Source: a virus (lineage: Duplodnaviria > Caudoviricetes). From it: a stretch of DNA of 56,256 bases. Below the pieces are notes generated by a model. That model had not been told where the DNA came from and ran no database searches. It worked only from the letters and a program-made list of their open reading frames with translations. Location of the stretch: IMG/VR virus record IMGVR_UViG_3300042528_000130, positions 1 to 56,256 of that record; one strand, given 5' to 3'. The translations under genes were made by a program, and so were the position numbers. This document shows positions 7,097 to 45,563 of the stretch, one piece after another (within the stretch, counting starts at the first letter, position 1; every line of letters begins with the position of its first letter).

Positions 7097-7365
7097 CTTG
7101 TCGAAAGCTCCCTGAGTCGGCCAGATACAATCCGAAAAAGACGCTTTCTCGCAAACCGTCGGCGGGCAGAAGGGGACATCATCGCGTAGCCGCCGACGCC
7201 CATGATCATCCTGTTCTGCAAGGAGATGCCCCACGCGTTCGCGGCAGATCTCCTGCCGTCGCACCCGCAGTCTTGTCCTGCGATGTACGTGACTCGGCTT
7301 TTTGTGATCCCGATGGCAGACAGGAATTTTCCGATCAAGTCTCCGACCGCAACCAGCCTCATCAC
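7069..7365 (-). CDS. conserved phage protein (GD..GI..DCGC..R)
   Basis: VGDLIGKFLSAIGIT..GQDCGCDGRR motif; follows the tail gene. Confidence 0.65.
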   Translation of the reverse strand: MMRLVAVGDLIGKFLSAIGITKSRVTYIAGQDCGCDGRRSAANAWGISLQNRMIMGVGGYAMMSPSARRRFARKRLFRIVSGRLRELSTRWRATTTSE

Positions 7366-14678: not shown

Positions 14679-14679
14679 G

Positions 14680-15021
14680 TCAGCACCCCACGGAAATAAG
14701 CACATCTCCAGAGACCAGACAGACTCTGTGAGCAGAAGAGAACGCGATGTTCGGAAACAGAACATTCTGCACCTGAGCAGTGGCAGACGTGTTCTCTGCG
14801 TACGTGACTTGCTTCCACTGAAGAATAGTCCAGGCGCCGGTGAACAGGCACTTCTGAACTCCTCCTCCTCCTCCGCCAGCCGCTCTCGGCAGTGAGCTGG
14901 GGCTCCCCCCGCGCCGCGCTCTCTCGTAGCCCGACACAGCGGCATTGATCCGCTGCGCGTCTTGATGCGTGAACGAGACGAGCTGATTTCCCTTATTCGC
15001 CGGAATGTTCTTCCGCTTCAT
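14680..15021 (-). CDS. small tail protein
   Basis: MKRKNIP... reads on the minus strand (CAT at 15019-21, TCA at 14680-82); the ORF track labels it + in error. Confidence 0.7.
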   Translation of the reverse strand: MKRKNIPANKGNQLVSFTHQDAQRINAAVSGYERARRGGSPSSLPRAAGGGGGGVQKCLFTGAWTILQWKQVTYAENTSATAQVQNVLFPNIAFSSAHRVCLVSGDVLISVGC

Positions 15022-29877: not shown

Positions 29878-32105
29878 CCGCGACGGGCCTTGAGGAATGC
29901 GACCGTCTCGCGAGCAACGCTGGCTGATCTGCGAGATGTCTTCGGCCGAGAGATCTTTTTCTCGAACACTCCCTTGCTCGACGAGTAGCCCCCAGGAGAT
30001 TTCGCGACAAGCTTGTACCCCTTCGAGGACAGAGTCTTGACGTCTTCATCTCTCCACGCCTCGACGGCGACGTGCTTTGCGTTCAGTGCTTTTGCAGACT
30101 TCTCGACAGTATCGAGGTTTGTGCCGCCGTCCTGAAAAGAAAAGAAAACGGAAGCGCCTTTCGGCTTGTCTCCGAAGATGCTGCTTGCCGTGATGAACGC
30201 ATGCCCGCCATTATGCGTCTCGATCATCAGCGTCTTTCCGTCTGCCGCGAATGACGAATACTTCACCTCTCCATTTGTCATAATGTCGGCGACCTTCTTT
30301 ATCTGTTCATCCGACACGCCTGCGCTCTCTTTAATAGCCTGATATCGCTTTCCCTTCGGGCCGTTCACGTTGCCGAAAAACTCAGCTACGGACACTGCGG
30401 CGTCGATTAGCGACCCAAACACTTTCCCGCCAATCCAACCTCCCGCTGCTCCGCCTACGACTCCAGCAACTCCACCGGCAAGTCCGCCTGCGGCCCCCAT
30501 GACTGCACCAATGCGGCTTGCCTTTGAAGAAAAGCTTTCCTTCTCAGCCTCCGGCGACGGCTCCTTCTTTGCGCTGCCTTTTCCGCCTCCAGCGCCGCAC
30601 GAATTATCCAGCCCGCCGCCTTCCCCCGTCGGGCAAAACGCCCGCCGTTCTGTAAGAAACTCTGCCATTTCTTTCTTAACGATTGCGGCCCGCTCTTTGA
30701 TCTCAGAGCGAGACTCGACCTTCTTCACGCCTTCGGCGACGAAGTGCTGGTAGCTCCGCTTCGCCACTGCGACAGTCGAGTCGCCGTAGGCTGGGTACGT
30801 GACGGGGCCGCAATCGAGGAGAGACTTGATCTTCGTCACAGTCCGAATCGAGCGGCCGTTCTCGGTCGTCCACTTTTCCCCGCCGTCTGCCACGACGAAG
30901 CTGAAGCTTGATCCACGCAAGTCGCCTCTTTCGATTAGCTCGGCCAAATCTTGGCGAGACTCCGGAAGCAGGCACTCGTACTTGAGCCCCTTCGTGTCGA
31001 CGATGAGCCGCATCGTCGTCGGGAAACGTCCGAGCAGATGATCGGGCGAGTGATTGAACAGGCAGCGAGTCTGAAGAGGCTGGCCTTCGCTGTCTTCTCG
31101 CTTCTCGACGATGTCGAACGCTTCCGGCGCAATCCGCTCGACAAAATCCCCCAGCAGCAACGAGTCCTTGTGGAAGCGGGCCGCATACCCGACAACGTAC
31201 GTGCGAGGCTTGCCAGTCGAAGGATCGGCGCGGCGCTCGACCCGCAGAAGCTCCGGGTCTGCCTTCTCGACGTGGCTGAAGTTGCCGAGAAATCGTCGCT
31301 CGACTCCAGGCGGCTCGGTCGCGCGACGTTCTTCCGCGAAGTATTCTTCGATCACTTTTCGCAACTCCTCTGCGTCTGGTTCGCCCTCGATCCGTCGAAG
31401 GCACTCGTCTTTCGTGGACTCGACGTGTACGTACTTGGTCGGAATGTCCGACAACTGCCTCTTCATCTCGTCGCTGACGTTCGTGGTGATGATCCACGTC
31501 TTGCAGTCGTTCGAGCCTGAAAGAGCCTTCTTCAGAATAAGATTTCTGATATCCAGACAATAAGAGACGAGCTTCTCGTTCCTGCCGCCTCCCGACAGGG
31601 CGGACATGACCTTGTAGAAGTCGAAGACGACGTCGTTCTCGCCCTTGTGCTTGGCAACATAGTCCTGCTTGCCGCTACCTGGGGCGCCATGCACGACGTA
31701 GACGTTTGGTTTCATGCCGTGCGACGAGCCGTACGGACGAAGATCGCGGCCCTCTTTCTCGTCGGCGGCGTTCATCTGCTCGACGACTTTCCGAGCCCAA
31801 GCGTAGCCATTCGGGCCACCCCAGAGCTTGTTGGCGATTAGCCCGTTGCTGGGCCATCCCTTGTCTCCCTTGAAGAATCCTTCGGCCTTCTCGTCTGACT
31901 GGTGCCGGTCGAAGAACGCTTTCATCCGTCGCAGCGTCGACGGCGATAGCTTCACCCCGTTCGCCAAGTCTCTCGCGCGAGCAATGCCGACGGCTGTGCC
32001 GCCGCGGCCGTATTCGCGGCGGAGCTTCAGGCCGTACTCGGCTTCCTTCTTGACGCCCTGCGGCGGCGTGAAGTCGATGTGGGAGTATTTTTCAGGAGTT
32101 GCCAT
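29874..32105 (-). CDS. multi-domain HK97-type prohead protease
   Basis: Central GYAARF..FVERIAPEAF..LFNH..LLGR..GLKY..RGDL.GSSFSF..PVTYPAY; N-terminal helical domain and P-loop (GAPGSGK) domain; C-terminal tagged Gly-zipper domain. Confidence 0.9.
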   Translation of the reverse strand: MATPEKYSHIDFTPPQGVKKEAEYGLKLRREYGRGGTAVGIARARDLANGVKLSPSTLRRMKAFFDRHQSDEKAEGFFKGDKGWPSNGLIANKLWGGPNGYAWARKVVEQMNAADEKEGRDLRPYGSSHGMKPNVYVVHGAPGSGKQDYVAKHKGENDVVFDFYKVMSALSGGGRNEKLVSYCLDIRNLILKKALSGSNDCKTWIITTNVSDEMKRQLSDIPTKYVHVESTKDECLRRIEGEPDAEELRKVIEEYFAEERRATEPPGVERRFLGNFSHVEKADPELLRVERRADPSTGKPRTYVVGYAARFHKDSLLLGDFVERIAPEAFDIVEKREDSEGQPLQTRCLFNHSPDHLLGRFPTTMRLIVDTKGLKYECLLPESRQDLAELIERGDLRGSSFSFVVADGGEKWTTENGRSIRTVTKIKSLLDCGPVTYPAYGDSTVAVAKRSYQHFVAEGVKKVESRSEIKERAAIVKKEMAEFLTERRAFCPTGEGGGLDNSCGAGGGKGSAKKEPSPEAEKESFSSKASRIGAVMGAAGGLAGGVAGVVGGAAGGWIGGKVFGSLIDAAVSVAEFFGNVNGPKGKRYQAIKESAGVSDEQIKKVADIMTNGEVKYSSFAADGKTLMIETHNGGHAFITASSIFGDKPKGASVFFSFQDGGTNLDTVEKSAKALNAKHVAVEAWRDEDVKTLSSKGYKLVAKSPGGYSSSKGVFEKKISRPKTSRRSASVARETVAFLKARRG

Positions 32106-35100
32106 CGTCGCTCCATTCGTAATCGTCCAGATCCCCCTCGTCCCAAATCTCCTGCCACATTTCGTCGAGCCGCACGAGATCTGCTGGCGAGAGCCACTCG
32201 TCGCCGGAGCCGAGCGGCATGTCTCGTCTCTGTGCGCCGGAGCCGAACTTCCGGATAAACCTGTCCATGATCTTGGACTGCGGGCTCGACCTGTCCTTCA
32301 GGTTGAAGTAGACGTCCAAGTCTTCGCCGTTCTCGGCCCACCAGCGAGTTCCCTCGGGGGTGGCGTGCAGATCGAGCAGAGACTTGGCGTGAGACAAGTC
32401 TGGCGGGAGCTTGCTGACGAGGTGCTGCGGAAGTCGTGCGTCGAAACCCATGCGGGGCCAGATCGTGAAACCTCGCCAGGGATTGCTCGCCTTGCCTTTC
32501 CCAGAGTCGGCAGCGGCGCTTCCGGCGGCGTTGAGCGTGATCTGTGACGCACCGGCCTTGCGTGCTGACTCGACGCTCGACACCATCGTCCGGTAGAACG
32601 CTGCGGCGGCTGCGTGTCGCTTGGCTGGATCTCTGGCGATCTCGTCGGTGACGGTCGCTGTGTTCTGGAAAATGAGTACAGAGCCGTCTTCTCCCTTGCC
32701 GATCGCGGCTGAGTGATTCATCGCACCTTCGATGCCCGCGATGTCCGACTCGAAGTCGATGAAGACCGGAGTCTCTGAGAAGCCGAACCCGGAGCCGAAC
32801 TCAGTTCCAGGCCGCATGTAGACGTCAGAGTCCGGCGTTCCGCCTGCGGCTGCGACGGCAGTCGCGGCGTCGATGCCAGCCGATTCGAGGCTCGACTGCA
32901 CTCTCTGCGGAGCCTTGACGCTCACCGTGCCGTACTTGTCGGCGCCGTCGAACGGCGGCGGAGCGGTCTCGCGAGACGATGCTGGCCAGAGGATTTCGCT
33001 GTTCGACGACCAGCGGTCGTCTGATCCGGAGGCTGTGGCCGTGGCTGTGCCGTCTTCCTGGCACTTGTTGCCAGAGCCGAACTTGCCGTCCTCGTCACGG
33101 CCGCAGTCGGCAGACCTCTGCTCATCGTCCAGCGAATACTCGATCGTCTCTTCGTCGTAGTCGCGGCTCGTAATCTTTCTTGCGACGCGGCCTTGTGCCG
33201 TGATGACGACCGGCTTGACCTTCTTGACCTCGGAGATTGGGTATCCGTACTTTCCGTCAGGGCCGATGTAGTGCGGAGAGTCTTTTCCGACTCGATGCTG
33301 CTCGAAGTCGGCATCGAACTCTTCTTGAGTCTTGTAGAACTTCGGCTCGCCGATCTTCATGGTTCCGACGAGCGTCGCCTTGCCCTTTCCTGTGCGGACG
33401 ATTCCGACAGTCTTGCCGACGTACGGGCGAAGCGAGTTGGAGGGGCGAGTCTCTAAAGTCTTCTCTCCGGACAGAATCTGGCCCGTGAAGTCCTGATGCT
33501 TGTCGTTGATGTTGATGCCCATCTGGCACTTGTTGCCAGACCCGAACTTTCCGTCTTGGTCACGACCGCAGTCGGCGGAGCGAGACTCGACCAAATCCAG
33601 CGGCAGGAAGTTGCGTCGCTCTTCGACGTCGTCTTCGAGCGACTGAATCAAGGCCAGCACGTCGATGTCGAGGTCGGCGAAGTCCGCGTTCCACACCGAC
33701 TGTTCGACGTCGAGCGGATTGACGTCGAACTCCTCGTCTCGATCGTCGATCTCGCCCTGCTGCGCGTCTCGCCGAGAGGCGGGCGTAAACGGCTTGGCGC
33801 TCGGTTGATCTTTGCTTCTCGCGAGCCGTCCGCTGAGAACTCCATCGGCCGCGGCCGAGAAGAGCGAGTTGTCGGTGATGTTCGTCTGCGCGCCGAGGTG
33901 CTTCCAGAGCCGCTTCTCGTACTGCCAGAGCGCCGCCTGGATCTCGTCGATGTCGGCCTTGCGGCCGGTTCTGGCCTCGATCTCCGACTGCACGCGACGG
34001 AAGACTTCGCGAATGTTCTTTCTCGCCGTGCCGGTCTTCGGGTCTTGCTGCTCGTGAATCAGAGACTTGAACAGAGAGTTGCCAGCCTGATGCAGGGCAT
34101 GAATCTCTGGGTCTTCGTGCTTTCCGTATCCGCCGCCAGTGGGTCGGCGAGTCTTGCCGTGAGACCGCTCGGCGGCTGTCGCCCAGAGGAAAGCCGCGCC
34201 GTTCTCCTCGATCACGCCGGTCTTGGCCTGAATCTTCAGCGAGCGGACAAGCTGCTCTTTCGTAATGCCGTGAGTCTTGTCGACGCCGAACAGCTTCGCG
34301 CGGTTCCACTTTCCGGACTCGATCGCCTTGAGGATCGCCTCGGCCCGCTCCTTGGCCTGCTTCGGAGTCGATCGCGTTATGAGTTCTCCGGAGACCCGCC
34401 CGACAGACCTCATGAGCCAGCGATCCATCGTCAGGAAGTCGTGCTTCCCAGACAGGTTCGCAAAGAACGAGCCGATCTTCGGGCCGAAGATCGCCGCGAC
34501 CGGAACGACCTCATCGCGAAGCTCGCCTGACACCATCTGCTTTTGGTCGCCGCCTCGGTCGACAGGCAAAGACCACGCCGAAGCTCCGGTTCGCTGCTGC
34601 CACTCTTCTGCCTGCGACTTCCCGGCGAGCTTGGCGAGAGTCTTCTCGACGTTCCCAGCGGTAGTGTATCCGGACAAAAGCCGCCGAGTTCGCTCTTTGC
34701 CGAACGAGTCGAGCAGTCCCTGGAGTACTTTCAGCGACGCCGTGACGTCTCTTGCGCCGCCGCCGTAGTTCGACGGAACGACCGTACCGTGTTCGCGATA
34801 CATGCGATACAGGTCGTCGGCATCGCGGAGGTTCGCGTCTGGGCCTTGGCCCGTGCTAGTGATCGCGAGCAGCATCGTGAAGACGAACTTCGCGTCGTCG
34901 TCCGTCTCGAATTCCGGATACCTCGACGTCATCTTCTTCATCGTGTCGTCGAGGTCGGTGCTGTAGAACCCAGGGTCTACGCCAAGCACGTCATAGGCAT
35001 GCAGCGCGTCGTCTGTGAGGGACTCGGCGAGATAGTCCAGTTGGGCTTCGGGCAAGTCTGGCGACGCCGTGTCGATGATCGCGCCTGGGCCTGTCGCTCC

Positions 35101-38100
35101 AGTCTTCTGACGCTCTTCTTCGTGGCGATTCGCCAGGAACTGCCCGACTGCCTCGTGAGCAACGAACTGGCCGTTCTGCCGGTGAGTCTCAGGCGGAAAG
35201 ACAGGATCGCTCTCGGTGATCTTGTTCGTCGACTTGCCGCCGCGAGACACGAACGTGCGATCCCACAGGTCTGTCGTCGAGCCCGGAGTAGAGCCTTCCG
35301 GCTTGTTCGCCTTGAAGTCCGCGATCGCCCTGTCGCGAGCTTCTTTGTCGATGACCGCCACGGTCTTCTGACCGCCGATCATGACGTCGACGTTTCGCTG
35401 CTTGCCAGCTTTGGCCTCAGCCTGAACGCTCCCGGCCACGCCGCCTTCGCCGCCGCAGTCATTGCCCTGGCCGAACTGCCCGCCGTCCTGTCGATCTGCG
35501 TCGGTGCAGTCCCCGCGGAACTCAACGTCGTAGTCGTACCAGTTCCGGTTCTTGTTCCGCTCTTTCAGGCGAGTGAGAAGAGTCTTCATCTTCTTGTACC
35601 GCTTGTAGCCGAGACTCTTCTTGTCTTTGAATTTCAGCATCAGCGGGATGTTCTTACCGTTCTCGTCCCACCACTTCTTCCCCTCGGCAGACGAGATCAG
35701 CTCTTGAATCATCAGCGGCTCGCCTGAGTCGAGCTTGTCAACGATATCGAGAGCCCACTTCGGCGGATTGTCGTAGTTGTCCTCGCCTCGATTCGCGATC
35801 GCCTCCTCGGCAAACTCACGCAGCCCGTACGTATGAATCTTCCCCAGCTCGCCATCGAAGCCGAACTGTGGCCAGAGCCGGTAGCCCTTGAGCGGAGAGT
35901 GTGCGTCGCCAGCAGCCATCGTCTCGGCGTACTGAGCGCCGATGGACTCAGCCCTCGCAAGCGAGTCGGTCATCTTTTCGAGCAGCACGCTCGACACTCG
36001 TTTCACTGACTCTTCAGTGATCTCGCCGTCTTCCGGCCGGTCGACGTACATCTCGTCGTACGAGATCGCGAGCCCCTCTCCGTTGTCGAACATCGCGACG
36101 TTCACCTCGACGGCGCCGTCCTTGTTCGTGCCGTCGGGGGAGATCGGCATCGTGGAGTTCACGCGGATAACGTCTCCGTCGCCTTCGACGATGACTTTTC
36201 CGCCTTTGCGAACTCCGCCGCCGATCGCGACGACGTCGTCGAAAGACTTGAACGAGCCGATGTCGGTCATCGCGCTCGCCAGCTCGCCGACGTCCCTCAC
36301 AATGAAAGACTTGAGAACTTCGCCGCCGGTCACTGGCGGAGAGTCCTTGAGCTTGGCTCGGCCCCATTGGGCTTCGCCTTCGGACTCCCACCACGAATCG
36401 TCTGGCTTCGTTGCTGTCGCGGCGCCGCCATCTTCGGATGCGCAGTCGTTGCCTCGCCCGAACCGTCCGCCTTCTTGGCGACCGCAGTCGTCGCGGAATT
36501 CGACCTCGTCTTCGAGCCAGTCGATGATGCTCCGGTTCTTGTTTCGCTCCTTCAGGCGAGCGATGCGGGCCTTCATCTCCTCGTACCGCTTGTAGCCCAG
36601 GCTCGACTTGTCTCGGAAGTCGAACGTCAGGTCTGTGCCGCGGCCGTTGTCGTCCCACCACTTCTCGCCTTCGCGAGTCGCGATAAGCTGCTGGACTGTC
36701 AGCTCTTCCTTATCGAGCTGAGACTTCTGCGAGTCGTTGAGAGTGAGCTTCCCGTCGGCGATAGACTTCCGCAGCGCTTCGAGTCTGAATGATCGAAGCT
36801 TGGCGTCGAAGCCGAACTGCGGCCAGAGCCGGTAGCCCTTCGTGTTCGATTCTTTATTTCCAGCAGCGTACGTCGTCGCCCTGACGATCCCGCTCTTCTC
36901 GGCCAGACTCATCGACTCGGACATTCTCTGCATCAGCAGGCTGGCGATCTGAGACTGCTGGGCCTGCGACAGCTCAACCTCTCCTCCGCCGCTGTCCTGC
37001 GGGAACATCTCGCCGTAGTAGATCGTGCGCCCGCCGTTGTAGCCGCCGTCGTCCCACAGGAGGTCGATGTGCGTCATGACTTGCAGAGATTCGGGGTCGC
37101 TAGGTTCGAGGGGCAAGAACGAGTACGAAGACAGAGTCTCCCTGTTGCTGCTTGCCTTGAACTCCATCGAGCCGCCCTCTCTCGCGCCGCCTGAGAGCGT
37201 CGCAAGATCGTCGAGGGTGATCTGAAATGCCTTGAGCGCAGCGGCTGTGTTCTTTGGGGATTTGATCGTGACACTCTTGAGTCCGTCAGCCCCTGGAATG
37301 GCCAGCGGGGGCGACTCTTTAAGCTCTCTGCCGCTCATGGAGAGAGAGTCGTCTCCTGCGTTCTGCATCCAGCTATCATCGCGATCGCGAGCCTGGGGCT
37401 CGCTCGATCCGCCGCCGCCGCCAGCACAGTCGTTGTCTGCCGCGAACTGCCCGCCCTCAGTCCGGCCGCAGTCGAGGCCAGCCCGATACTCGACGTCATC
37501 GAGCCAATCGAAGTAGCTCCGCCTCTTGTTTCGCTCCTTGAGTCGCGGGAGCTTCGCCTTCATTTCCTCGAACCGCTTGAGGCCGAGCGAATCGCCGGAG
37601 AACTCGATTTTCATGTCGAGCGAGTCGCCGTTCTCGTCCCACCAGCGTTCGCCTTCGCGAGTCGAGATCAGCTCTTGAATGGTGAGGCTCTTGCGACTGA
37701 GCTTGCTGCTCTTCGCAACTCGCGGCGTCTTGTCGAGAATCTCTTTCGGAATCTTGGCGAACAGTTCCTGCGGGAGCTTCGCGTCGAAGCCGAACTGCGG
37801 CCACAGCCTGTAGCCCTTGTCCTTGCTGTCGGCAGAGCCAATGGCGAGCATCTGTGCGTGGCTGAAGCCTGCGTCGCTGGCCATGCTCATGGACTCCAGC
37901 ATGCGTTCCATCATCACGCTGGCGATGCGGTTCTGCGATGCTGCATCGAGATCGAGGCCGTCGTCTGGGAACATCGTGCCGTACTCGATGTACGACGAGC
38001 CGTTCTCCTTGCTGATCTCGATGCTCGACTCGACGCTGCCCTTGTCGGGATCGTCTGGGTCGATCGGGATCTGCGACGAGACAGAGATGTCGTTGTGCGA

Positions 38101-38448
38101 ATACGACGCCAGCCACATTTCTGCGCCGCGGATCGCGCCTCCTCCAAGCGTGACGATCTCGTCGATGTTCAGGCCGTGTTCAGACTGGGCGGTGCGGAAC
38201 TTCTTGACGTCTCGAATCGTGAGGGCTTCGAGCTTCTCGCCGCCCTTGACCGGGCTCGACTTCTTCAGGTCAGACGACGTCCACTCTTTCGTTCCGGACT
38301 CCTGCTTCCATGAGTCGTCCTTCGGGCGAGCAGCCACGGCTGTTCCGCCGCTGCCGGACGCGCAGTCATTTCTCGGCGCAAACTGCCCCCCGTCAGTCCG
38401 GCCGCAGTTGATGTCGGACGCCCTGAACTCTCGCTCGCGGAGAATCAC
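32092..38448 (-). CDS. 2118-aa polyvalent polyprotein (4 GNAT-like, 1 HhH/glycosylase-like, 1 ASCH domain)
   Basis: Between portal and protease (MuF position); six ExR + Cys tags delimit the domains. Confidence 0.85.
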   Translation of the reverse strand: MILREREFRASDINCGRTDGGQFAPRNDCASGSGGTAVAARPKDDSWKQESGTKEWTSSDLKKSSPVKGGEKLEALTIRDVKKFRTAQSEHGLNIDEIVTLGGGAIRGAEMWLASYSHNDISVSSQIPIDPDDPDKGSVESSIEISKENGSSYIEYGTMFPDDGLDLDAASQNRIASVMMERMLESMSMASDAGFSHAQMLAIGSADSKDKGYRLWPQFGFDAKLPQELFAKIPKEILDKTPRVAKSSKLSRKSLTIQELISTREGERWWDENGDSLDMKIEFSGDSLGLKRFEEMKAKLPRLKERNKRRSYFDWLDDVEYRAGLDCGRTEGGQFAADNDCAGGGGGSSEPQARDRDDSWMQNAGDDSLSMSGRELKESPPLAIPGADGLKSVTIKSPKNTAAALKAFQITLDDLATLSGGAREGGSMEFKASSNRETLSSYSFLPLEPSDPESLQVMTHIDLLWDDGGYNGGRTIYYGEMFPQDSGGGEVELSQAQQSQIASLLMQRMSESMSLAEKSGIVRATTYAAGNKESNTKGYRLWPQFGFDAKLRSFRLEALRKSIADGKLTLNDSQKSQLDKEELTVQQLIATREGEKWWDDNGRGTDLTFDFRDKSSLGYKRYEEMKARIARLKERNKNRSIIDWLEDEVEFRDDCGRQEGGRFGRGNDCASEDGGAATATKPDDSWWESEGEAQWGRAKLKDSPPVTGGEVLKSFIVRDVGELASAMTDIGSFKSFDDVVAIGGGVRKGGKVIVEGDGDVIRVNSTMPISPDGTNKDGAVEVNVAMFDNGEGLAISYDEMYVDRPEDGEITEESVKRVSSVLLEKMTDSLARAESIGAQYAETMAAGDAHSPLKGYRLWPQFGFDGELGKIHTYGLREFAEEAIANRGEDNYDNPPKWALDIVDKLDSGEPLMIQELISSAEGKKWWDENGKNIPLMLKFKDKKSLGYKRYKKMKTLLTRLKERNKNRNWYDYDVEFRGDCTDADRQDGGQFGQGNDCGGEGGVAGSVQAEAKAGKQRNVDVMIGGQKTVAVIDKEARDRAIADFKANKPEGSTPGSTTDLWDRTFVSRGGKSTNKITESDPVFPPETHRQNGQFVAHEAVGQFLANRHEEERQKTGATGPGAIIDTASPDLPEAQLDYLAESLTDDALHAYDVLGVDPGFYSTDLDDTMKKMTSRYPEFETDDDAKFVFTMLLAITSTGQGPDANLRDADDLYRMYREHGTVVPSNYGGGARDVTASLKVLQGLLDSFGKERTRRLLSGYTTAGNVEKTLAKLAGKSQAEEWQQRTGASAWSLPVDRGGDQKQMVSGELRDEVVPVAAIFGPKIGSFFANLSGKHDFLTMDRWLMRSVGRVSGELITRSTPKQAKERAEAILKAIESGKWNRAKLFGVDKTHGITKEQLVRSLKIQAKTGVIEENGAAFLWATAAERSHGKTRRPTGGGYGKHEDPEIHALHQAGNSLFKSLIHEQQDPKTGTARKNIREVFRRVQSEIEARTGRKADIDEIQAALWQYEKRLWKHLGAQTNITDNSLFSAAADGVLSGRLARSKDQPSAKPFTPASRRDAQQGEIDDRDEEFDVNPLDVEQSVWNADFADLDIDVLALIQSLEDDVEERRNFLPLDLVESRSADCGRDQDGKFGSGNKCQMGININDKHQDFTGQILSGEKTLETRPSNSLRPYVGKTVGIVRTGKGKATLVGTMKIGEPKFYKTQEEFDADFEQHRVGKDSPHYIGPDGKYGYPISEVKKVKPVVITAQGRVARKITSRDYDEETIEYSLDDEQRSADCGRDEDGKFGSGNKCQEDGTATATASGSDDRWSSNSEILWPASSRETAPPPFDGADKYGTVSVKAPQRVQSSLESAGIDAATAVAAAGGTPDSDVYMRPGTEFGSGFGFSETPVFIDFESDIAGIEGAMNHSAAIGKGEDGSVLIFQNTATVTDEIARDPAKRHAAAAAFYRTMVSSVESARKAGASQITLNAAGSAAADSGKGKASNPWRGFTIWPRMGFDARLPQHLVSKLPPDLSHAKSLLDLHATPEGTRWWAENGEDLDVYFNLKDRSSPQSKIMDRFIRKFGSGAQRRDMPLGSGDEWLSPADLVRLDEMWQEIWDEGDLDDYEWSDDGNS

Positions 38449-41400
38449 AGAGTCACCTTGTCGTCGGTGATCTCGTAGAACATCTGCATGACCTCGCCAG
38501 AGTAGTCGTGTCCAGACAATACGCCCGCGATAACCTCAGCTACGAACTCTCGTCCGTTCACGGCGGCGTACCGCGAGACTTCAGCCTCGATCATCGACCG
38601 CTGCTCGGCCGTGAACTCATGCGACAGAGACGTCGCGTATGAAGCTGGGTCGCTCTTCGCGTGTGTGCGATGGGCCAGTTCGTGGAGAACCGGATTCGGC
38701 TGCGATGTCCAGCCGTCACGCTCAAGCATCGAGGCGTCGGGCGAGACGTAGACCGCGTCTTCTTCTGACGAGTACGACGCCAGAAGCTGCCCGATCGAGC
38801 GGACTTCGATCTTAGGCAGAGAAGAGAAGTGGTTCGACGCAGCCGAGATCAAGCCTTGGGCTGCGCTTTCTCCGCCATAATCCGCTTCGCTGCATCTCGC
38901 AGTGCTTCTGCGATGTCCTTCGCCGCCATCCCCGGAGGGAAGTCGAAGCGAACGAGGTTCTTTTTTGGCTCTTGTTCGTCGGCCATCGTACTCTTCCTTT
39001 CGGATTTCCTTCTTCTCGTTGAGATCCCAGATCGCGAGCTGGCTCGTGCTTTCTGCGGAGTCGATCGCGTCGTCGATGCTGTCGAACTTCTCTGAGAGAT
39101 CGAGGTACACCTTGCCGGTGGCCTGATCGACCCAGCCCCCTAAGTGTAGCGTCGGACGCTCGCCGAAGTGGGATTTATTCTCTTCAAAAAATTTCGTGAT
39201 GGCTTCTTCCGTCACGTCGTCGGCCGAGTTCAAGATTGTCTCCGACTCTGGAACGACGCTGACCATGTAGCCAGACGTCGGACTGTTGGCGGCGACTGGA
39301 TGAACCGAGAAGCCGCCCGAGTCTCGGATGCTCTTGAGGGCCGCTTCCGTGACTTGGCCAGACTTGATTCCGCTGGAGCCAGATCCGTCTCCGCTGGCGC
39401 ACGTGTTCCCGCGGCCGAACCGGCCGCCATCAGCCCGACCGCAGTCGTCGCTGCGAGACTCTGGATTCGTAGTCTTAGTCTTGGAAAGCCAGGGCCTAGT
39501 CTTGAGGTGCTGGTAGCCCAGCGGCTCGTCTGAGTCTCGCCCGTTATCTTCAGCACGAGACTGCTTCTTCCGCTTGGCCAGCTCGCTGCGAATAACGTCG
39601 GCGCCGACCTTCGAGGCGTACGCGTTCTGCGGCGCGAAGTCGCCCGTAAGCTCGTAGACCGCGTTCTGGCCGAACGTCTCGGCGAACAGGGCTGGCCACG
39701 CCTCTTCGGGGAGAGTCGAGGCGTGCGTGAGCATGCCGTTGTACTCGCCGTTCGTCGAGAACGAGTAGCCGCCGCGGACGTGGGCCACGAGATCATGAAC
39801 GACCCGGAACAGGTCGTTCGCAATCATGGGCTCGCCATCGGAAGTCTTGAACTTCGTCTCGCGGAGCATCGGGTGGTTTTCGGTCGCGGAGCCAGTCCCG
39901 AATCCTCGTTCTGTCATGAAGAACTTAAACTCACCAGACTTGGCGACTTCTTCCCGCATCTTGTCCGAGTTGGGCTTCGTGCTTCCTGGCGGATCTCCGT
40001 AGGGCTCGCCTTCGCCTCGCCACGCACTGACTCGCAGGCCAGACTGCGTCAGGGCCTCGTACTGGCGACCGATCTCGTCGACGAGCGACGAGTACGCAGC
40101 TTCTGCCTCTGGCGAGAGCGGCTTTCCGCTCTGGGCATTCTGCTCCTGGGCGAACGTCTCGATCTGCTGCCGCGGCGGTGTCTCAGCTTTGCCCTTCGAG
40201 CGATCCCAGACTGAGGCTGGGTCTTTGCCGATCGAGGCCACGACGCTATCGACGGCGTCGCGATACGGCTTCGTGCCGGACGGAAAGGTGCGGTCGCTGG
40301 CCTCGGACTTCGGTGCCTTCGGAGACGACTCCTGCTCGCCCGGGCCTGCGCCGTCTTTCTTCGCGCAGTCGTTGCCCTGCCCGAAACGCCCGCCGTCTTG
40401 GCGACCGCAGTCGTTCGACCGCTTCTCTTCGACAGCTTCGACTTCCTGAAGATCAGGCTTCTTCTCGCTGGCTTGGCCCTGCTCGGCAGGATTCGGAGAC
40501 TTGCCAGTCTTGACCTCTGGAAGACTCGGCACGCCACCGGCAGCTTCCGGCGGGGCTCCGGCTCCAGCTCCAGCTCCACCCATCATCGCAGCCATCGGAT
40601 CTGGCTTCGGCTTAACAGCATCTTCGAGCGTCTGCATGTTCATGCCGACGAAGTGCTTGTCGCCGTTCTCGACCGGAGCGAGCCCCTCGGCGCGGCGGCA
40701 GTCGTTGATCGAGTAGATGCCGAGATTCGTCATCGTCGAGTAGAACGACGCGCGGCTGTTCGAGTTGCCTCGCATCAGCCCCTTCGTGTCGAACTCGGCG
40801 AAGAACACGTCGTCGTTGTAGATCAGCGACCGCGAGATAGCCGACTCGATTCGACGGAGCCACGGCAGCAGCGTGTAGGTGACGAACTCTTGGCCCTGAG
40901 TCTCCAAGTCTCCGCCGCTCTGGCCCTGCACGAGCGCGAGTGGCAACCTGTAGATTCGCGCGATTTCTTCGCTCTGAAATCTCCGGCTATCTATGAACTG
41001 ACTCTGCTCTTGCGAGAACCCGATGGGCTCGGCTTTCAGGCCGTTTGTGAGGACTGCCGTCCGGAAAGCTCGGTCAACGCCCCTATGAAGTCTCTCCCAA
41101 TTGTCGCGGAGTCGCTCGGCCGCTTCGGGCGAGAGCGATCCGTCCGTCTGAAGCACGACGCCAGGGCGAGCCGAGTTCGCCCAGTACTTCGACGCGTGAA
41201 TCTCACACGCTCTCGCCAGGGCGATCGCCTCGCGGCCGACTTCGACCGGCACCATGCCCTTGATGCCGTCAGGCTCGGGAGTCCAGCGGACGTGCATGAC
41301 CTGATCTTGCGTGTACCGCTCCAGTCTTCCGGTCTCCGGATTCGTGTAGCTGTACCGGAGTCGGCCGTTTTCGAGACGCTCGACCTCCATCCGGCTCGGA

Positions 41401-41843
41401 TGAAGATTGTCGAGGGCGCTCACGGCTCCGTACTTGCCAGACCGAATCAGGCTGTACGAGTTCCCCCACAGAGTCAGGAACATGACGATCTGCTCGAAGA
41501 ACTCGAACTTCGTCTGCCACTCGTTGGGCGCGAACGACAAGACTTTGTAGAGCGGCAAGTCTGTGGCTGGCTCTTTGCCGCCGTCCTTCGTCCGACGCAT
41601 GACGTGCAGAGGCAGGCCCGAGATCGTCTCGGCGAGAATCCGGCAGCAGGCCAGCACGACAGTGGACTGGAGGGCGCTGTCTGGCGTGATCCGGACTTCC
41701 GCGGCTGTGCGCGAGCGTCCGAGATACGGCTCGTCGCTCGTGAGAAAGTTATTCCAGAGAATGCTCCGGAACTCAGGCTCTGGAGTGGTCAGGCCGCGTT
41801 CGGGTGTCCAGACAATGTCGGACAGGGCTCGCTCTTCGCTCAC
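38445..41843 (-). CDS. HK97-family portal protein with ~700-aa C-terminal cargo extension
   Basis: AL..TV.AC..ILAE.IS.LP, L.GNSY, LHP..M, EEIARIYRLP and LLPWLRRIE portal motifs, then two Cys tags and a zincin HELAH. Confidence 0.92.
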   Translation of the reverse strand: MSEERALSDIVWTPERGLTTPEPEFRSILWNNFLTSDEPYLGRSRTAAEVRITPDSALQSTVVLACCRILAETISGLPLHVMRRTKDGGKEPATDLPLYKVLSFAPNEWQTKFEFFEQIVMFLTLWGNSYSLIRSGKYGAVSALDNLHPSRMEVERLENGRLRYSYTNPETGRLERYTQDQVMHVRWTPEPDGIKGMVPVEVGREAIALARACEIHASKYWANSARPGVVLQTDGSLSPEAAERLRDNWERLHRGVDRAFRTAVLTNGLKAEPIGFSQEQSQFIDSRRFQSEEIARIYRLPLALVQGQSGGDLETQGQEFVTYTLLPWLRRIESAISRSLIYNDDVFFAEFDTKGLMRGNSNSRASFYSTMTNLGIYSINDCRRAEGLAPVENGDKHFVGMNMQTLEDAVKPKPDPMAAMMGGAGAGAGAPPEAAGGVPSLPEVKTGKSPNPAEQGQASEKKPDLQEVEAVEEKRSNDCGRQDGGRFGQGNDCAKKDGAGPGEQESSPKAPKSEASDRTFPSGTKPYRDAVDSVVASIGKDPASVWDRSKGKAETPPRQQIETFAQEQNAQSGKPLSPEAEAAYSSLVDEIGRQYEALTQSGLRVSAWRGEGEPYGDPPGSTKPNSDKMREEVAKSGEFKFFMTERGFGTGSATENHPMLRETKFKTSDGEPMIANDLFRVVHDLVAHVRGGYSFSTNGEYNGMLTHASTLPEEAWPALFAETFGQNAVYELTGDFAPQNAYASKVGADVIRSELAKRKKQSRAEDNGRDSDEPLGYQHLKTRPWLSKTKTTNPESRSDDCGRADGGRFGRGNTCASGDGSGSSGIKSGQVTEAALKSIRDSGGFSVHPVAANSPTSGYMVSVVPESETILNSADDVTEEAITKFFEENKSHFGERPTLHLGGWVDQATGKVYLDLSEKFDSIDDAIDSAESTSQLAIWDLNEKKEIRKEEYDGRRTRAKKEPRSLRLPSGDGGEGHRRSTARCSEADYGGESAAQGLISAASNHFSSLPKIEVRSIGQLLASYSSEEDAVYVSPDASMLERDGWTSQPNPVLHELAHRTHAKSDPASYATSLSHEFTAEQRSMIEAEVSRYAAVNGREFVAEVIAGVLSGHDYSGEVMQMFYEITDDKVTL

Positions 41844-43195
41844 AGTACGATGATCTCCGGATCTGGCTGTCGCATGCCTGCTTCGGCGTCACTTGCGAGT
41901 GCGAGCGCCATGACGAGAGCGACCATGCCGTCCACTCGCTGAGGGCTCATCGCACTCGGTTTCACGATCTTGATGTACCCGTCAGAGTTAGTCTTGGTCA
42001 CGCAGTTCGATGCCATCCAGTTCAGGATGGGATTGTCAGCAGTTCGCAGCCGCCCCTGCGCTATGAGAGTTTCAAGAGCGCGGGTCGGTGAATTCATCTG
42101 CGAGAAATGCTGCGAAAAGCCTATCACGTCAAGTCCCTCAGTCTGAAGTTGTTGCTGAAGGTGGTGGGCGTTGTGCGGGTCGGCCGCGATCTTTCTGACC
42201 TGATGGTCTTTCGCGAACTGAAGAATGTCGCGACGAATGAACTCGTAGTCGCACGTGTCGCCTGGAGTCAGGAGCAGGCCGGTCTTCTTGCTGTCTCTCG
42301 CCCAGAGCGTGTACGGAACTTCTTCGCGACGCTGCGTCGCGTTGTCTTCTGGGATCCAGAACTTGCAGATCACGTCGAAGACGTCTTCGCCTGTCTCTTC
42401 GTCGGCGATCTTCGAGACAGCGACGAACGCGTTCACGTCCCAGGTCTGGGCTAAGTCGAGCCCGCAGTACCAGACGCGAGACTTGTCCGGAGGCGGGAAG
42501 TCTCGCTTGCAGCGTTCCCAGCGGGTCAAGTCCACGAACTTGTTCGATCCCTGTATCCAGACATTGAGCCTGTATCTGAGGAAGTCAGCGAGCTTCGAGT
42601 TGTTCCCCTCGGCCTCTCGGACGTCGGCCTTGAAGCTCTCCTCGTCCATCGTGACGCCGAACGAGGGATTCGCGGCTCGCCAGACTTCCGGGTCTCGGTA
42701 GTCGTCCTCGGCGGTCGCTCCGGCCACGAACCCGAAGAACTGCGGATCGTGGTGCGGGTCTTGCATGCACTTGAGGGCATGCTCGTGCAGCTCGTAGCAG
42801 ATCGACGTCCGGTCAGTCCCGGCTGTGGTGATCGCGAGAATTAAGCTCTGTGATCTGGAAATTCCACCGTAACGAACCGCTGCCCATAGCTTCCTGTCCT
42901 TGGCGGAATGGATCTCGTCATAGCACAGCGAGTGGATATTCAGGCCCTCCTGGCGACCGGAGTCGCTGGAGATGACCTTCCAGAACGAGTGCGTCGGAAC
43001 GCACGTGATCGTCTTCCGAGAGTCGACGATCTCCAGCATCTCGGACAGGTGCGGGCTCGCCTCGACAAGCTCCTTCATCTGCTTGTAGACGATCGAGGCC
43101 TGCTCGCGGCTCGTGGCACAGCCGAAGCACTCGGCTGACGCTTCGCCGTCAGCGACGGTCATGTACAGGCCGATGCCGGAGAGAAGGGTAGACTT
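41840..43195 (-). CDS. terL: terminase large subunit, C-terminal part (from the Walker A KST)
   Basis: KSTLLSGIGLY, A.SREQA.IV, EGLN..CYDEIH, ITTAG, GLDLAQ, RVDG.VA; same frame as the N-terminal part. Confidence 0.92.
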   Translation of the reverse strand, partial: KSTLLSGIGLYMTVADGEASAECFGCATSREQASIVYKQMKELVEASPHLSEMLEIVDSRKTITCVPTHSFWKVISSDSGRQEGLNIHSLCYDEIHSAKDRKLWAAVRYGGISRSQSLILAITTAGTDRTSICYELHEHALKCMQDPHHDPQFFGFVAGATAEDDYRDPEVWRAANPSFGVTMDEESFKADVREAEGNNSKLADFLRYRLNVWIQGSNKFVDLTRWERCKRDFPPPDKSRVWYCGLDLAQTWDVNAFVAVSKIADEETGEDVFDVICKFWIPEDNATQRREEVPYTLWARDSKKTGLLLTPGDTCDYEFIRRDILQFAKDHQVRKIAADPHNAHHLQQQLQTEGLDVIGFSQHFSQMNSPTRALETLIAQGRLRTADNPILNWMASNCVTKTNSDGYIKIVKPSAMSPQRVDGMVALVMALALASDAEAGMRQPDPEIIVL

Positions 43196-43246
43196 GCACA
43201 GAGAGCGTCTTGGCCCCCGCGGCTACCATGCCGCGGGGGCCAAGAC
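43196..43246 (-). other. 51-nt in-frame hairpin insertion with TAG inside the TerL Walker A
   Basis: 19-bp perfect stem GCGTCTTGGCCCCCGCGGC, loop ATGGTA (43205-43248); lies between Gly GGC and Lys AAG. Confidence 0.85.
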
Positions 43247-43525
43247 GCCATTTTTTTTCGGCACCTCTATGAAGCCAATCCTGAACTTCCGAGCCCCGTT
43301 GTCGACCCGGAGCCAGCCGAAGAGTTCCTCGATGATGTCGTGCTTCTGCCAGGGGAGAAGCTCGAACGGCTTGCCAGCGAACTGGCCCTTCGAGTGGACG
43401 AGGAAGTTCTCGAAGAACCCGACGGCGTGGTCGGCCCGCTCTTGGTCGAAGTAGAAGTCGAGCCCCTGCTCAACTGCTTCGCTTCGCGATATACGCGGCA
43501 AGAGGATTTTCTTTGGCAGCGGCAC
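43247..43525 (-). CDS. terL: terminase large subunit, N-terminal part
   Basis: FYFD..AD.A..F....H.KG..AG.PF.L.PWQ..FGW..EVPKKNG. Confidence 0.9.
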
Positions 43526-43934
43526 TGTTCACCTTGAGTGTGCTTCGAGCCGCCGGGGTCATGCCGAACTGCTGCTCGATCCGCAGCAAGTCTCCGGGCA
43601 GGCTCTTGAACAACGTCCCCTCCGCTGTGATCTGTGAGTAGCCGGTCGACGTGAGCTGGGTCATGCCATGCTCGCGGACGTGCTTCGAGACGACGACCCA
43701 CTGCTCGTGCAGGACGCAGTACCGGGTCAGGAGAGACCGATCGGCCTGAGAGAGAACGCCCATCTTCGCCAGGAGCGGCGCGATCTCGTTCCACTTCTCC
43801 AGGGCCACGCCATCGAGGCACGGCGGCGGGCTCAGGTCGGCATCGGGCGGCGCCGGTTCGTCGCCGTTGAGAGGCCGGTTGCCGGGATTGCCCCTGAGAA
43901 TCTTGATGGAGGTCGGCGTCGGCGGGCGTCCCAT
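43470..43934 (-). CDS. terS: terminase small subunit, P27 family
   Basis: GRPP.PT..K.LRGNPG.R..PP..L...A..KW..FGMTPAAR. Confidence 0.92.
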   Translation of the reverse strand: MGRPPTPTSIKILRGNPGNRPLNGDEPAPPDADLSPPPCLDGVALEKWNEIAPLLAKMGVLSQADRSLLTRYCVLHEQWVVVSKHVREHGMTQLTSTGYSQITAEGTLFKSLPGDLLRIEQQFGMTPAARSTLKVNSAAAKENPLAAYIAKRSS

Positions 43935-44010
43935 GCGTCTCGGCTTCGCGAAACCCGAAAAAGCGAGTTTTTCGGCCTAAAAGCCCCCCCTGAAAATTTC
44001 GCGGGCGCTC

Positions 44011-44038
44011 ACGGAAGGCCGCAGCTCGGGTCTTCCGT
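44011..44038. other. candidate cos (cosN) site
   Basis: IR ACGGAAG-N14-CTTCCGT in non-coding DNA between HNH and terS, near GAAAATTTCGCG and a C7 run. Confidence 0.45.
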
Positions 44039-44458
44039 TGATTTTCAAATTCAGGAGAGACACTGCCCCGGAGTGGGGCTGCTCTTTAGTCTGGCAGATC
44101 AAGGCTCGCCAGTAAAGTTTCGCACTCGCGAGAAAGCTCGCCTCTTCTCGCGAGGCCACTTCGCTCTCTCAGGTCTTCCTATCTTCGCTAATCTTCCATC
44201 CCCTGTTCTTCATAGATCGCTTTGAGGTCAGAAAAGAGAATCCAGAAGCCCAGAGTATATAGGACTTTAAAAAAAAGCATTTTCTTTCTTGACTTCGCGA
44301 CTTACTTTTTTCATTTCTTCATTCTTCATTCTCTCTTCGCGTATACGTACGCATACAAAAGAGGAAATGAAGCAAGCCTCTCAGCGTCAATTTGAGGCCA
44401 GAATCAAAAAGGGGGTCTGGAGATACCAAGAAGCCCTGCGCGGGCTTCCTGCGCAAAG

Positions 44459-44758
44459 CTAGGGGCCTCTGCGTTCATTATATGTCTTCACCGCATGGCA
44501 CTTCTGGCACAGCGTCTGAAGCCCAGCCTCATCATCGCTCTGAGTCAGCTTTCGAGGAATGATGTGGTCGACATGTGCCTCCTGTGGCGAGCCACACACG
44601 CGACCACAGGAGCGACACTGATAGGCGTCGCGAATCAGAACTCGCTCTCGAATCGCCTGCCAGTTCTTGCCCCCATAGCCTCGCCTGTAGGCATTGGGGC
44701 GACCTTCTCGCATCCGGAGTTTCTTGGCGGGCCTGAAGAAGCTCATCCGGCGAGGCAT
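44459..44758 (-). CDS. HNH endonuclease (HK97 gp74-like terminase cofactor)
   Basis: RGYG..W..IR..VL.RD.YQC..CG..HVDHIIP..LQTLC..CH..KT. Confidence 0.9.
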   Translation of the reverse strand: MPRRMSFFRPAKKLRMREGRPNAYRRGYGGKNWQAIRERVLIRDAYQCRSCGRVCGSPQEAHVDHIIPRKLTQSDDEAGLQTLCQKCHAVKTYNERRGP

Positions 44759-44762
44759 GAGA

Positions 44763-45563
44763 TCACGAGACCACGAGGAGGGCAGAGTTGCTGTAGAAAG
44801 TCTGCGAGTCAAACGTCAGAGAGAGCCGGTAGAGGCTGTTATTGTCGCCGGATGCGACAATAAACGACTGCGTGCTATTGGCAGTTCCGCCAAAGCTGTC
44901 CCACGTTGACCCGCCATCTGTTGATCGCTGCCACTGCTTGCTGGGGAAGCTGTATGTGCCACCATAAGTGTTGCCCACGATGGAGGCGGCAGCGTAGAAG
45001 CTGACAGACTGCCCAACAGACTTCACCTGTCCGACTGGCTGATACGACCACACCGCGCTGACAGTGTCATATCGCAGAGTTCCGGGAGAGCTGCGAACTG
45101 ACTTGAGGCCGTTCGTCACGACGAGCCGGTAGAGGTCTCCATCGTTCGAGGCTGTCTGGCTCGTGACTTCGAGGCCAACGGTTCGCTGCGAATAGTAATA
45201 CCCAGCCGTGCTGTCATCGCCAGAAGACCCTGGCACTGTCGCCCACGTCGCCCCATCGTCGTCGCTCTTTTCCCACACGTATGTGAATGGCAGGCTCTCG
45301 GGCGAAGGTGTGATCACCGCGCTGAATGTTCCAGTTCCGCTGCCGGTCGCGTCGACGTAGTCCATCAGGTTGTACGGCCAATAGCCTGTCGAAGGCCAGC
45401 CGATCTCGATCGAGTTGCGAGGCCAGCCGGTCATTCCGTACAAGTCATATCCGTACAGCCCGCGAATGGCCGCATACACGTCGCCAAGCCGCCACAGGCC
45501 ATTCGCCTCATAGCCGTCGGGCCGCATCGACGCCCCGATTCGCCCGCCGATTCTGCCATTCAT
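44763..45563 (-). CDS. virion structural protein with Ig-like domains
   Basis: Two Y.W..S.D.G.TW..DG.LYR Ig-type repeats. Confidence 0.7.
   Translation of the reverse strand: MNGRIGGRIGASMRPDGYEANGLWRLGDVYAAIRGLYGYDLYGMTGWPRNSIEIGWPSTGYWPYNLMDYVDATGSGTGTFSAVITPSPESLPFTYVWEKSDDDGATWATVPGSSGDDSTAGYYYSQRTVGLEVTSQTASNDGDLYRLVVTNGLKSVRSSPGTLRYDTVSAVWSYQPVGQVKSVGQSVSFYAAASIVGNTYGGTYSFPSKQWQRSTDGGSTWDSFGGTANSTQSFIVASGDNNSLYRLSLTFDSQTFYSNSALLVVS

Follow-up and report, generated by a model that had tools for sequence, protein, structure and literature searches.

A predicted translational bypass cassette based on a mobile hairpin in the Walker A motif of phage terminase genes

A terL gene interrupted by a hairpin

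The window analysed here is the whole 56,256-nucleotide (nt) stretch of virus record IMGVR_UViG_3300042528_000130 (Caudoviricetes). Its minus strand carries terL, the gene for the terminase large subunit (TerL), and the Walker A motif (P-loop) encoded by this gene is interrupted by a 51-nt segment that includes most of a GC-rich hairpin (Table 1). The minus strand reads CCG AAA AAA AAT GGC [51 nt] AAG TCT ACC, wherein the gap splits VPKKNG|KST between the codons for Gly (GGC) and Lys (AAG). The frame that begins with the GTG at position 43525 encodes ...FIEVPKKNG followed by VLAPAAW, and ends at the TAG at 43225-43223. The same frame reopens at the AAG at 43195 as KSTLLSGIGLY... and runs to 41840.

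This element was described in a first-pass annotation made from the sequence alone, and both the minus-strand sequence and the description of the element are correct in every detail on re-reading. The perfect 19-base-pair stem, the 6-nt loop and the TAG at the loop are confirmed on the sequence, and a 20th pair, G·U, can be formed beyond the 19 perfect pairs. The stem exceeds chance expectation. Two arm matches were found where 0.05 were expected, and none of 100 shuffles reached two. The fold has a predicted energy of -66.9 kcal/mol for 121 nt (z = -6.7), and none of 200 shuffles was as good. There are no further copies of the palindrome in the 56-kb record. An exact 17-mer of the arm occurs in three other viral contigs; neither an inverted repeat nor a terL context is visible around it, and these hits were dismissed by eye, with no fold run, as chance GC-rich matches.

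Translation confirms that the two halves of TerL are open in the same frame, and the C-terminal part matches PF03354 and PF20441. In a relative that lacks the insert (L005), PF03354 is matched from profile position 1 and continues straight across the VPKKNGKST junction. Thus, removal of exactly 51 nt restores a normal Walker A motif, as had been proposed. Without such removal, the 0 frame of the window stops at the loop TAG, and the +1 and -1 frames, read by eye, also meet stops. Because the gap is a multiple of three, neither a +1 nor a -1 shift would in any case restore the downstream frame. Separate translation of the C-terminal part was considered and rejected, since no start codon is found at the Lys codon or close to it and the first in-frame ATG (43162) would delete GKST.

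Table 1. Coordinates of the interrupted terL gene, its hairpin element and upstream genes in the window
Feature	Position	Strand	Remarks
terL part 1, N-terminal region to ...IEVPKKNG	43247..43525	-	GTG start at 43525 to take-off codon GGC
5' flank GAGGTG-CCG-AAAAAAAA-T	43250..43267	-	Shine-Dalgarno (SD)-like hexamer, then rare Lys and Asn codons
GAGGTG	43267-43262	-	SD-like hexamer
A8 run	43258-43251	-
Take-off codon GGC (candidate)	43249-43247	-	Gly of Walker A; at 5' base of hairpin
Non-coding gap, 51 nt	43196..43246	-	absent at exactly this point from insert-less relatives
GC-rich hairpin	43205..43248	-	arms 43248-43230 and 43223-43205; 19 perfect pairs
Hairpin loop ATGGTA, 6 nt	43229-43224	-
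In-frame TAG at loop	43223..43225	-	would truncate the non-bypassed product
Landing triplet TGC (candidate)	43196..43198	-	last triplet of gap; GGN in relatives
AAG, Lys of GKST	43195-43193	-	first codon after gap
terL part 2, rest of ATPase and nuclease domain	41840..43195	-	PF03354 from profile position 34; PF20441
terS, terminase small subunit	43470..43934	-	PF05119 Terminase_4, E 1e-19
HNH endonuclease	44459..44812	-	PF01844; upstream of terS; context, outside the element

Conservation of the gap, its hairpin and its flanks

There are 53 related loci in a protein-seeded scan of viral contigs, most of them 68-88% identical, and the 46 that cover the junction were examined there; it lies outside the remaining seven. 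An insert is present at the identical point in 28 junctions, 16 are uninterrupted, and two carry an intein. Among the 80 loci kept from a metagenome scan, eight have the insert, two have an intein and 70 are uninterrupted. The sole match in a collection of species genomes is a metagenome-assembled contig titled 'bacterium', which has a 48-nt insert. A degenerate pattern for the hairpin matched 44 viral stretches, of which 43 are flanked by terL P-loop sequence; the remaining one (L162) is truncated by the end of its locus and has the same 5' flank and hairpin. A pattern made of the flanks only, with the gap left free, also matched 44 stretches, and four new ones folded into the same hairpin family, the hairpin having already been established in the remainder. 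When a covariance model was run over 46 sources (479 kb), each contig proved to have a single copy, in every case at terL. The insert is present in 107 fetched locus records, some contigs having been fetched more than once, and these correspond to 38 unique gaps of classes 1, 2 and 2b (see below) and 47 unique contexts with 150 nt on each side of the gap. With two class-3 gaps, there are 40 unique gap sequences. Insert-bearing contigs reach 97 kb.

Three further runs (X2-X4) were compared as contigs and not as reads. Run X2, from another sample, yielded a 1075-nt contig that has 23 differences from the window and carries the insert, with two double changes by which pairing in the stem is preserved (43219 with 43234, and 43221 with 43232). 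An assembly artefact had been raised as a concern, and it is answered both by this independent sample and by the inserts at the same spot in relatives. A 151-nt contig from run X4 skips exactly the 51 nt. Because it is about 13% diverged, we take it to be an insert-less relative and not a second form of the window phage. Contigs from run X3 flank the hairpin, either ending at 43195 or starting at 43272, and have no bearing either way.

The insertion position is thus conserved, as the first-pass annotation anticipated. Its expectation that gap lengths would be multiples of three was not borne out. The 38 unique gaps are 46 (5), 47 (12), 48 (8), 49 (3), 50 (6) or 51 (4) nt long and the class-3 gaps are 51 and 52 nt, such that all three frame classes are present, and this is stronger evidence for skipping than the expected lengths would have been. 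Stop, frameshift and next-codon counts given here and below refer to the 33 unique gaps that were studied in detail. Among these, the 12 with lengths divisible by three all carry a loop stop codon in frame, and 0-frame read-through is open in none of them. These stops span at least eight loop sequences and make use of TAG, TAA or TGA. Where the gap length is suitable, the frame is open after a -1 shift in 11 of 16 gaps and after a +1 shift in three of five, and 19 of the 33 gaps are beyond rescue by any single shift. Neither read-through nor simple frameshifting is possible as a general solution.

Most representatives, including the window, belong to class 1, in which the gap follows a Gly codon (GGC, GGT or GGG) and ends with GGC, GGT or GGA. 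There are four representatives of class 2 (L153, L154, L156 and L165), in which the same hairpin family is located one codon upstream, after AAT (Asn), and the gap ends with AAC just before the Gly codon. The class-2b gap of L191 (724-799) has hairpin arms GTCTGGCCCCCGCTGGC and GCTGGCGGGGGCAGAC after an Asn codon, with unmatched AAT and ATC triplets. A class-2b tail, PKKN[VF]WPPLA..., is present in four protein clusters, and DNA was obtained from one locus only. Class 3 has a different GC-rich hairpin after CCG (Pro) and is found in L050 (about 1915-2000) and L065 (about 503-590). In L050 the gap ends with CCG before AAA AAG AAC GGC AAG.

In 37 of the 40 unique gaps, the candidate take-off and landing triplets agree at their first two positions, and they do so in three registers, namely GGN...GGN (Gly), AAT...AAC (Asn) and CCG...CCG (Pro, in L050). 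The spacer immediately ahead of the landing triplet varies freely in sequence. Moving 3' from the folded helix, the landing triplet is the earliest cognate-like triplet to be met in 31 of 33 gaps, after 0-7 unpaired letters, and 2-9 further cognate-like triplets are buried inside the helix. An invariant G-run is located 14-16 nt upstream in all 33. The window itself is an exception to the matching. The first-pass annotation noted that GGC and UGC agree at only two of three positions, which is true of the window and is peculiar to it, given that its relatives have GGN at both sites. In the X2 contig, the spacer has lost one base and gained another in compensation, which turns the triplet into GGC. 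This near-identical strain indicates that the TGC of the window is a derived state, and landing in the window may be less efficient than in its kin.

The peptide ...FIEVPKKNG encoded upstream of the gap is conserved TerL sequence with or without an insert. Its codons in class 1 are close to invariant, with GAG in 33, GTG in 32, AAA in 33, AAA in 32 and AAT in 30 of 33 junctions, compared with 25, 7, 10, 11 and 8, respectively, of 29 insert-less junctions. The third letter of the intervening Pro codon varies freely in class 1, and AAA and AAT are rare codons in the window genome. This flank may slow or destabilise the ribosome before it meets the helix. The GAGGTG hexamer and the A8 run are absent from classes 2 and 3, which indicates that the flank is not essential to all representatives.

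Compensatory changes, named at the outset as a test, are found in the stems of aligned relatives. Across 23 unique junctions, 94.3% of the cells of a 20-pair helix are paired, and shifting the partners by 1-3 columns lowers this to 42-52%. Seven of the 20 pairs change on both sides, and the observed values were reached in none of 500 shuffles. Over pairs 18-35 on the sense strand there are 359 Watson-Crick cells, 45 G·U cells and two A·C cells, the last being G·U on the opposite strand. Sense folds are predicted at -35 to -48 kcal/mol, and in 19 of 23 junctions the antisense strand folds less stably. The excess of G·U over A·C indicates that the stem is selected as sense-strand RNA of the terL message, and argues against both a DNA cruciform and a terminator on the plus strand. 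Beyond the main helix, there is no conserved 5' stem-loop or downstream barrier stem, only invariant 3-pair stems. A search of Rfam gave no family above the gathering threshold, and the sub-threshold hits were generic hairpins (microRNA precursor families).

Both halves of the gene are maintained. Every insert-bearing locus that reaches both ends has an open N-terminal part (94-104 codons) and an open C-terminal part (445-451 amino acids). Purifying selection is equal on insert-bearing and insert-less genes. Median pairwise dN/dS values are 0.205 (N) and 0.158 (C) for the insert-bearing genes (21 unique genes, 208 pairs each), and 0.204 (N) and 0.174 (C) for ten insert-less genes; the pairs are not independent, and the two sets are indistinguishable. 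Synonymous divergence (dS) of terL within the insert-bearing clade is about 0.7-1.25. The observation is genuine, and reflects neither an artefact nor a decaying gene.

On the TerL tree, the distribution of the insert requires 4-5 gains or losses. The proteins of L019 and L051, which have 51-nt gaps, are almost identical to those of L020 and L021, which have none. The TerL proteins of L127 and L128 are only 45-46% identical to those of L038 and L029, and the 47-nt gaps of L127 and L128 are one or two letters from that of L038. No gap is present in L129 and L137, which are 92-96% identical kin of L127 and L128. Relative to L129, about 13 nt upstream of the gap in L128 are changed (CCG AAG AAG AAC GGA to CCC AAA AAA AAT GGC), as are about 9 nt downstream (AAG AGC ACG to AAA TCG ACA), including a three-letter Ser codon switch. 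Confinement of the flank differences to so short a tract is the signature of a conversion tract and of site-specific horizontal spread. By these signs, the element is mobile between terL genes and carries short co-converted flanks. L020 and L021, which are insert-less and keep the A8/TCG flank, look like precise losses, for which slipped pairing of the flanking triplets across the hairpin is a plausible route.

A second type of insert is found nearby. In L039, L050, L061 and L065 an intein separates K from S of GKST (C-extein junction, ...THN|STLL), and in two of these (L050 and L065) it shares one P-loop with the hairpin gap that follows the Pro codon. The terL P-loop is evidently host to two unrelated kinds of selfish insert.

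Models for the production of full-length TerL

The earlier claim that the insert must be skipped, by bypassing or by RNA excision, is supported by the relatives, the gap lengths, the stem and the evidence of selection. We consider it probable that full-length TerL is made by programmed translational bypassing, and that the gaps constitute a family of mobile cassettes in the Walker A motif of terL carried by uncultured freshwater phages. The ribosome would decode ...Lys-Lys-Asn-Gly, whereupon peptidyl-tRNA(Gly) would release the take-off GGC at the 5' base of the hairpin. A gap of 46-52 nt, made of the hairpin and a short single-stranded spacer, would then be passed undecoded, and the same tRNA would re-pair at the first matching triplet 3' of the hairpin. 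Decoding would restart at AAG-TCT (Lys-Ser) and complete GKST, such that the product would read ...VPKKNG-KSTLLSGIGLYMTVADGE across the junction, free of gap residues. Failed hops would meet the loop stop or an out-of-frame run and give a truncated N-terminal product. That the skip occurs on the ribosome is something we infer, as are the trigger for take-off and the efficiency.

A bolder version, toward which we lean only slightly, is that these gaps represent a second independent family of long-range programmed ribosome hopping in bacterial viruses, wherein a homing hairpin is used in at least three registers and a helix of about -40 kcal/mol is jumped while folded, with neither a stop nor a hungry codon. 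Perhaps the hairpin is crossed as a folded unit, in which case the peptidyl-tRNA would exchange the codon at the 5' base of the helix for its match at the 3' base.

Several observations weigh against bypassing. The stem, at 17-20 GC-rich pairs and about -40 kcal/mol, is far larger than that of T4 gene 60, a short stem with a UUCG-type loop. A stop or rare codon after the take-off site is regarded as important for gene 60, whereas the codon in that position here is a common one: GTC in 19 gaps, GCC in nine, TCC in two, CCC in two and CTC in one. GTC and GCC together account for 28 of 33, and no Val or Ala codon is used more often in the window (37.5 and 36.0 per 1000). An SD-like triplet is located 5-7 nt before the landing site in only 16 of 33 gaps, and there is no AU-rich 3' part, again unlike gene 60. 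Three of the 40 unique gaps have mismatched triplets, these being the window (GGC/TGC), L065 (CCG/CTG) and L191 (AAT/ATC), and several of the matched pairs (GGY/GGA and GGG/GGT) exceed standard wobble for one tRNA. Furthermore, the matched triplets could partly be a relic of insertion, in the form of a target-site duplication. The counts across relatives are not phylogenetically independent. Among cultured phages, the best TerL is only 37% identical and the junction DNA is unmatched, and no RNA runs are listed as holding the window sequence.

RNA-level excision, in which a nuclease would cut the hairpin segment from the terL mRNA and a ligase would reseal it, is unlikely. It would account for selection of the stem as sense RNA and for the location of both junctions at or near the base of one helix, and it is equally compatible with gap lengths in all frames. 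However, the 3' junction is located 0-7 unpaired nt past the stem, within the variable spacer, and a cut measured from the structure would therefore not give one precise junction. Nor is there a conserved unpaired ribozyme core beyond the stem and the flanking triplets, or an Rfam family above threshold. Only one unbranched helix is conserved, which is not what a ribozyme or a group I or group II intron would show. Excision also leaves unexplained why the flanking triplets are codon-like and in frame in three registers. We know of no bacterial mRNA splicing system of this type. Bypassing is favoured over RNA excision.

We regard as quite improbable a role at the DNA level or on the antisense strand, such as an intrinsic plus-strand terminator that could end antisense transcripts, or a nuclease or terminase site, for which the interruption of terL would be a side effect that must still be skipped. 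The plus strand at 43205-43258 does provide the best terminator-like site in 41500-45000, with 19 pairs followed by CA and T8, and the A8 run that supplies these T residues co-occurs with class-1 inserts. The combination of a GC-rich hairpin and a U-run is present on the plus (antisense) strand only, and class 3 lacks a T-run on that side. Moreover, the 45 G·U cells of the sense strand would each correspond to an A·C mismatch if antisense RNA or DNA were the paired form, and the reverse occurs only twice, the nearby large genes are all on the minus strand, and the production of TerL would be left unexplained.

The presence of GAGGUG, A8 and a hairpin recalls the dnaX -1 frameshift signal. Frameshifting might yield a TerL with extra residues in the P-loop, or mainly a truncated product. 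This very improbable alternative draws on the class-1 GAGGTG-CCN-A8-T tract, which is almost invariant at synonymous sites and directly precedes a strong hairpin, and on the -1 frame: of the 16 gaps with a suitable length, 11 leave it open. These stimulators are confined to class 1, the A8 run and GAGGTG being absent from classes 2 and 3, and the 19 gaps noted above have a shifted frame that is either closed or unsuitable in length. All 12 in-frame gaps contain a stop. Close kin also differ, since the -1 frame has a stop in L033 and is open in L042. Finally, any frame rescue would add 15-18 residues within GxxxxGK[ST], which are unlikely to leave an active ATPase.

Least probable of all is that a selfish palindrome has killed the gene in defective phages that obtain TerL from a helper or not at all, or, in a weaker form, that this is true of the window copy only: the window landing triplet is among the three exceptions, the record is incomplete and the element behaves as a mobile insertion, but both halves are open in all spanning insert-bearing loci, purifying selection equals that of insert-less kin, the stem, flanks and landing triplet are themselves conserved, and the insert is spread over a divergent clade (dS about 0.7-1.25) with contigs of up to 97 kb.

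Known systems and genomic context

Published accounts assign efficient long-distance bypassing to one phage cassette, found in T4 gene 60 and its topoisomerase homologues, and to one yeast mitochondrial lineage (preprint). The gene 60 homologues reported there are all in topoisomerase genes of myoviruses (preprint). Gene 60 cassettes are described as mobile, with gaps of about 50 nt and a truncated non-bypassed product. Their take-off and landing codons are paired, at Gly or at the preceding codon, with freedom at the third letter, and the 5' side of a stem-loop contains the take-off codon. The terL element has, or is predicted to have, parallels to each of these features. A non-coding gap of about 50 nt is located inside an essential phage gene, the candidate take-off and landing codons match on Gly or the codon upstream (the window being an exception) with third-letter differences tolerated, and the candidate take-off codon is held in the 5' side of a stem-loop that is kept by compensatory and G·U changes. 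Similarly, a truncated non-bypassed product is predicted, and the cassette is mobile and recurrent at the same position.

There is no sequence similarity between the two, and the host gene differs, being terL at its Walker A motif and not a topoisomerase gene. The phages are GC-rich, uncultured and from freshwater. No MobA-like endonuclease is linked to the element, and there is no Rfam match; by descent, the element does not belong to the gene 60/MobA group. The HNH endonuclease gene next to terS, which encodes the only nuclease nearby, was considered as an element-specific homing enzyme and rejected, given that homologues are also located upstream of terS in insert-less loci. Bypassing of terL is a prediction from sequence. 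Most likely, the terL cassettes are a new family that resembles gene 60 in logic and is not homologous to it. The byps of the yeast Magnusiomyces capitatus differ by being mitochondrial, with many inserts per genome and per gene, whereas the terL cassette is found once per genome at one motif and its gap is followed by a common codon.

The only terminase case found in the full-text literature is that of Streptomyces phage Hau3 (PMC10732093). Its terminase gene has two 10-nt inserts led by UUA that are candidates for regulatory bypass (PMC10732093). As in terL, non-coding blocks disrupt the frame of a large terminase gene, the sequences on either side of them are contiguous in relatives that lack the blocks, and bypass has been put forward as the route to a functional terminase (PMC10732093). 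The Hau3 blocks differ in that they are 10 nt long, would be triggered by UUA, a rare codon read by a tRNA of limited availability during development, and are located at other protein positions (PMC10732093). They occur in three of 100 genes surveyed and involve no long hairpin (PMC10732093). A second paper (PMC4351075) concerns a tape-measure gene and is unrelated. There is no report of a hairpin gap in the Walker A motif of a terminase in the full-text literature searched, whose coverage is incomplete and excludes supplements. Inteins of the terminase P-loop are likewise selfish elements in the same conserved motif, and they are translated and removed at the protein level, whereas the hairpin gap is untranslatable.

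A non-homologous family with about 40 natural variants, three registers, mismatched landings and insert-less sister genes would constitute a comparative set on the requirements of hopping, and the apparent absence of a slow A-site codon would test current models of bypass. The cassette would also be a new kind of selfish element beside the inteins that crowd the codons of the P-loop. Essential phage genes split by such gaps are already mis-called as two open reading frames (ORFs), and a mis-called terL affects TerL-based phage classification and completeness estimates. The protein collection contains 59 clusters of fragments of 60-163 residues that correspond to the N-terminal part, several of which are labelled 'phage terminase large subunit-like protein'.

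The source record is linear, has a G+C content of 59.8% and a completeness rating of 57%, and all large genes in the window are on the minus strand. No tRNA genes were found in the window. The packaging genes on the minus strand are ordered as HNH endonuclease, terS, terL and a portal gene with a long extension. Many related contigs start near terS, at a distance of only some hundreds of nt up to about 1000 nt on the upstream side of the terL junction. Such starts would fit a physical genome end (a cos site), with the HNH gene at the opposite end.

The portal gene (38445-41843, minus strand) matches PF04860 at residues 62-387 and is fused to an extension of about 750 residues. In this extension a Cys/Gly-rich motif (..DCGR.DGGRFG.GN.CA..) occurs twice, and a HELAH stretch near the C-terminus resembles a metalloprotease motif. 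The structural region also contains giant minus-strand ORFs at 7362-14945, 16027-21525 and 32092-38448, which encode 2527, 1832 and 2118 residues, respectively.

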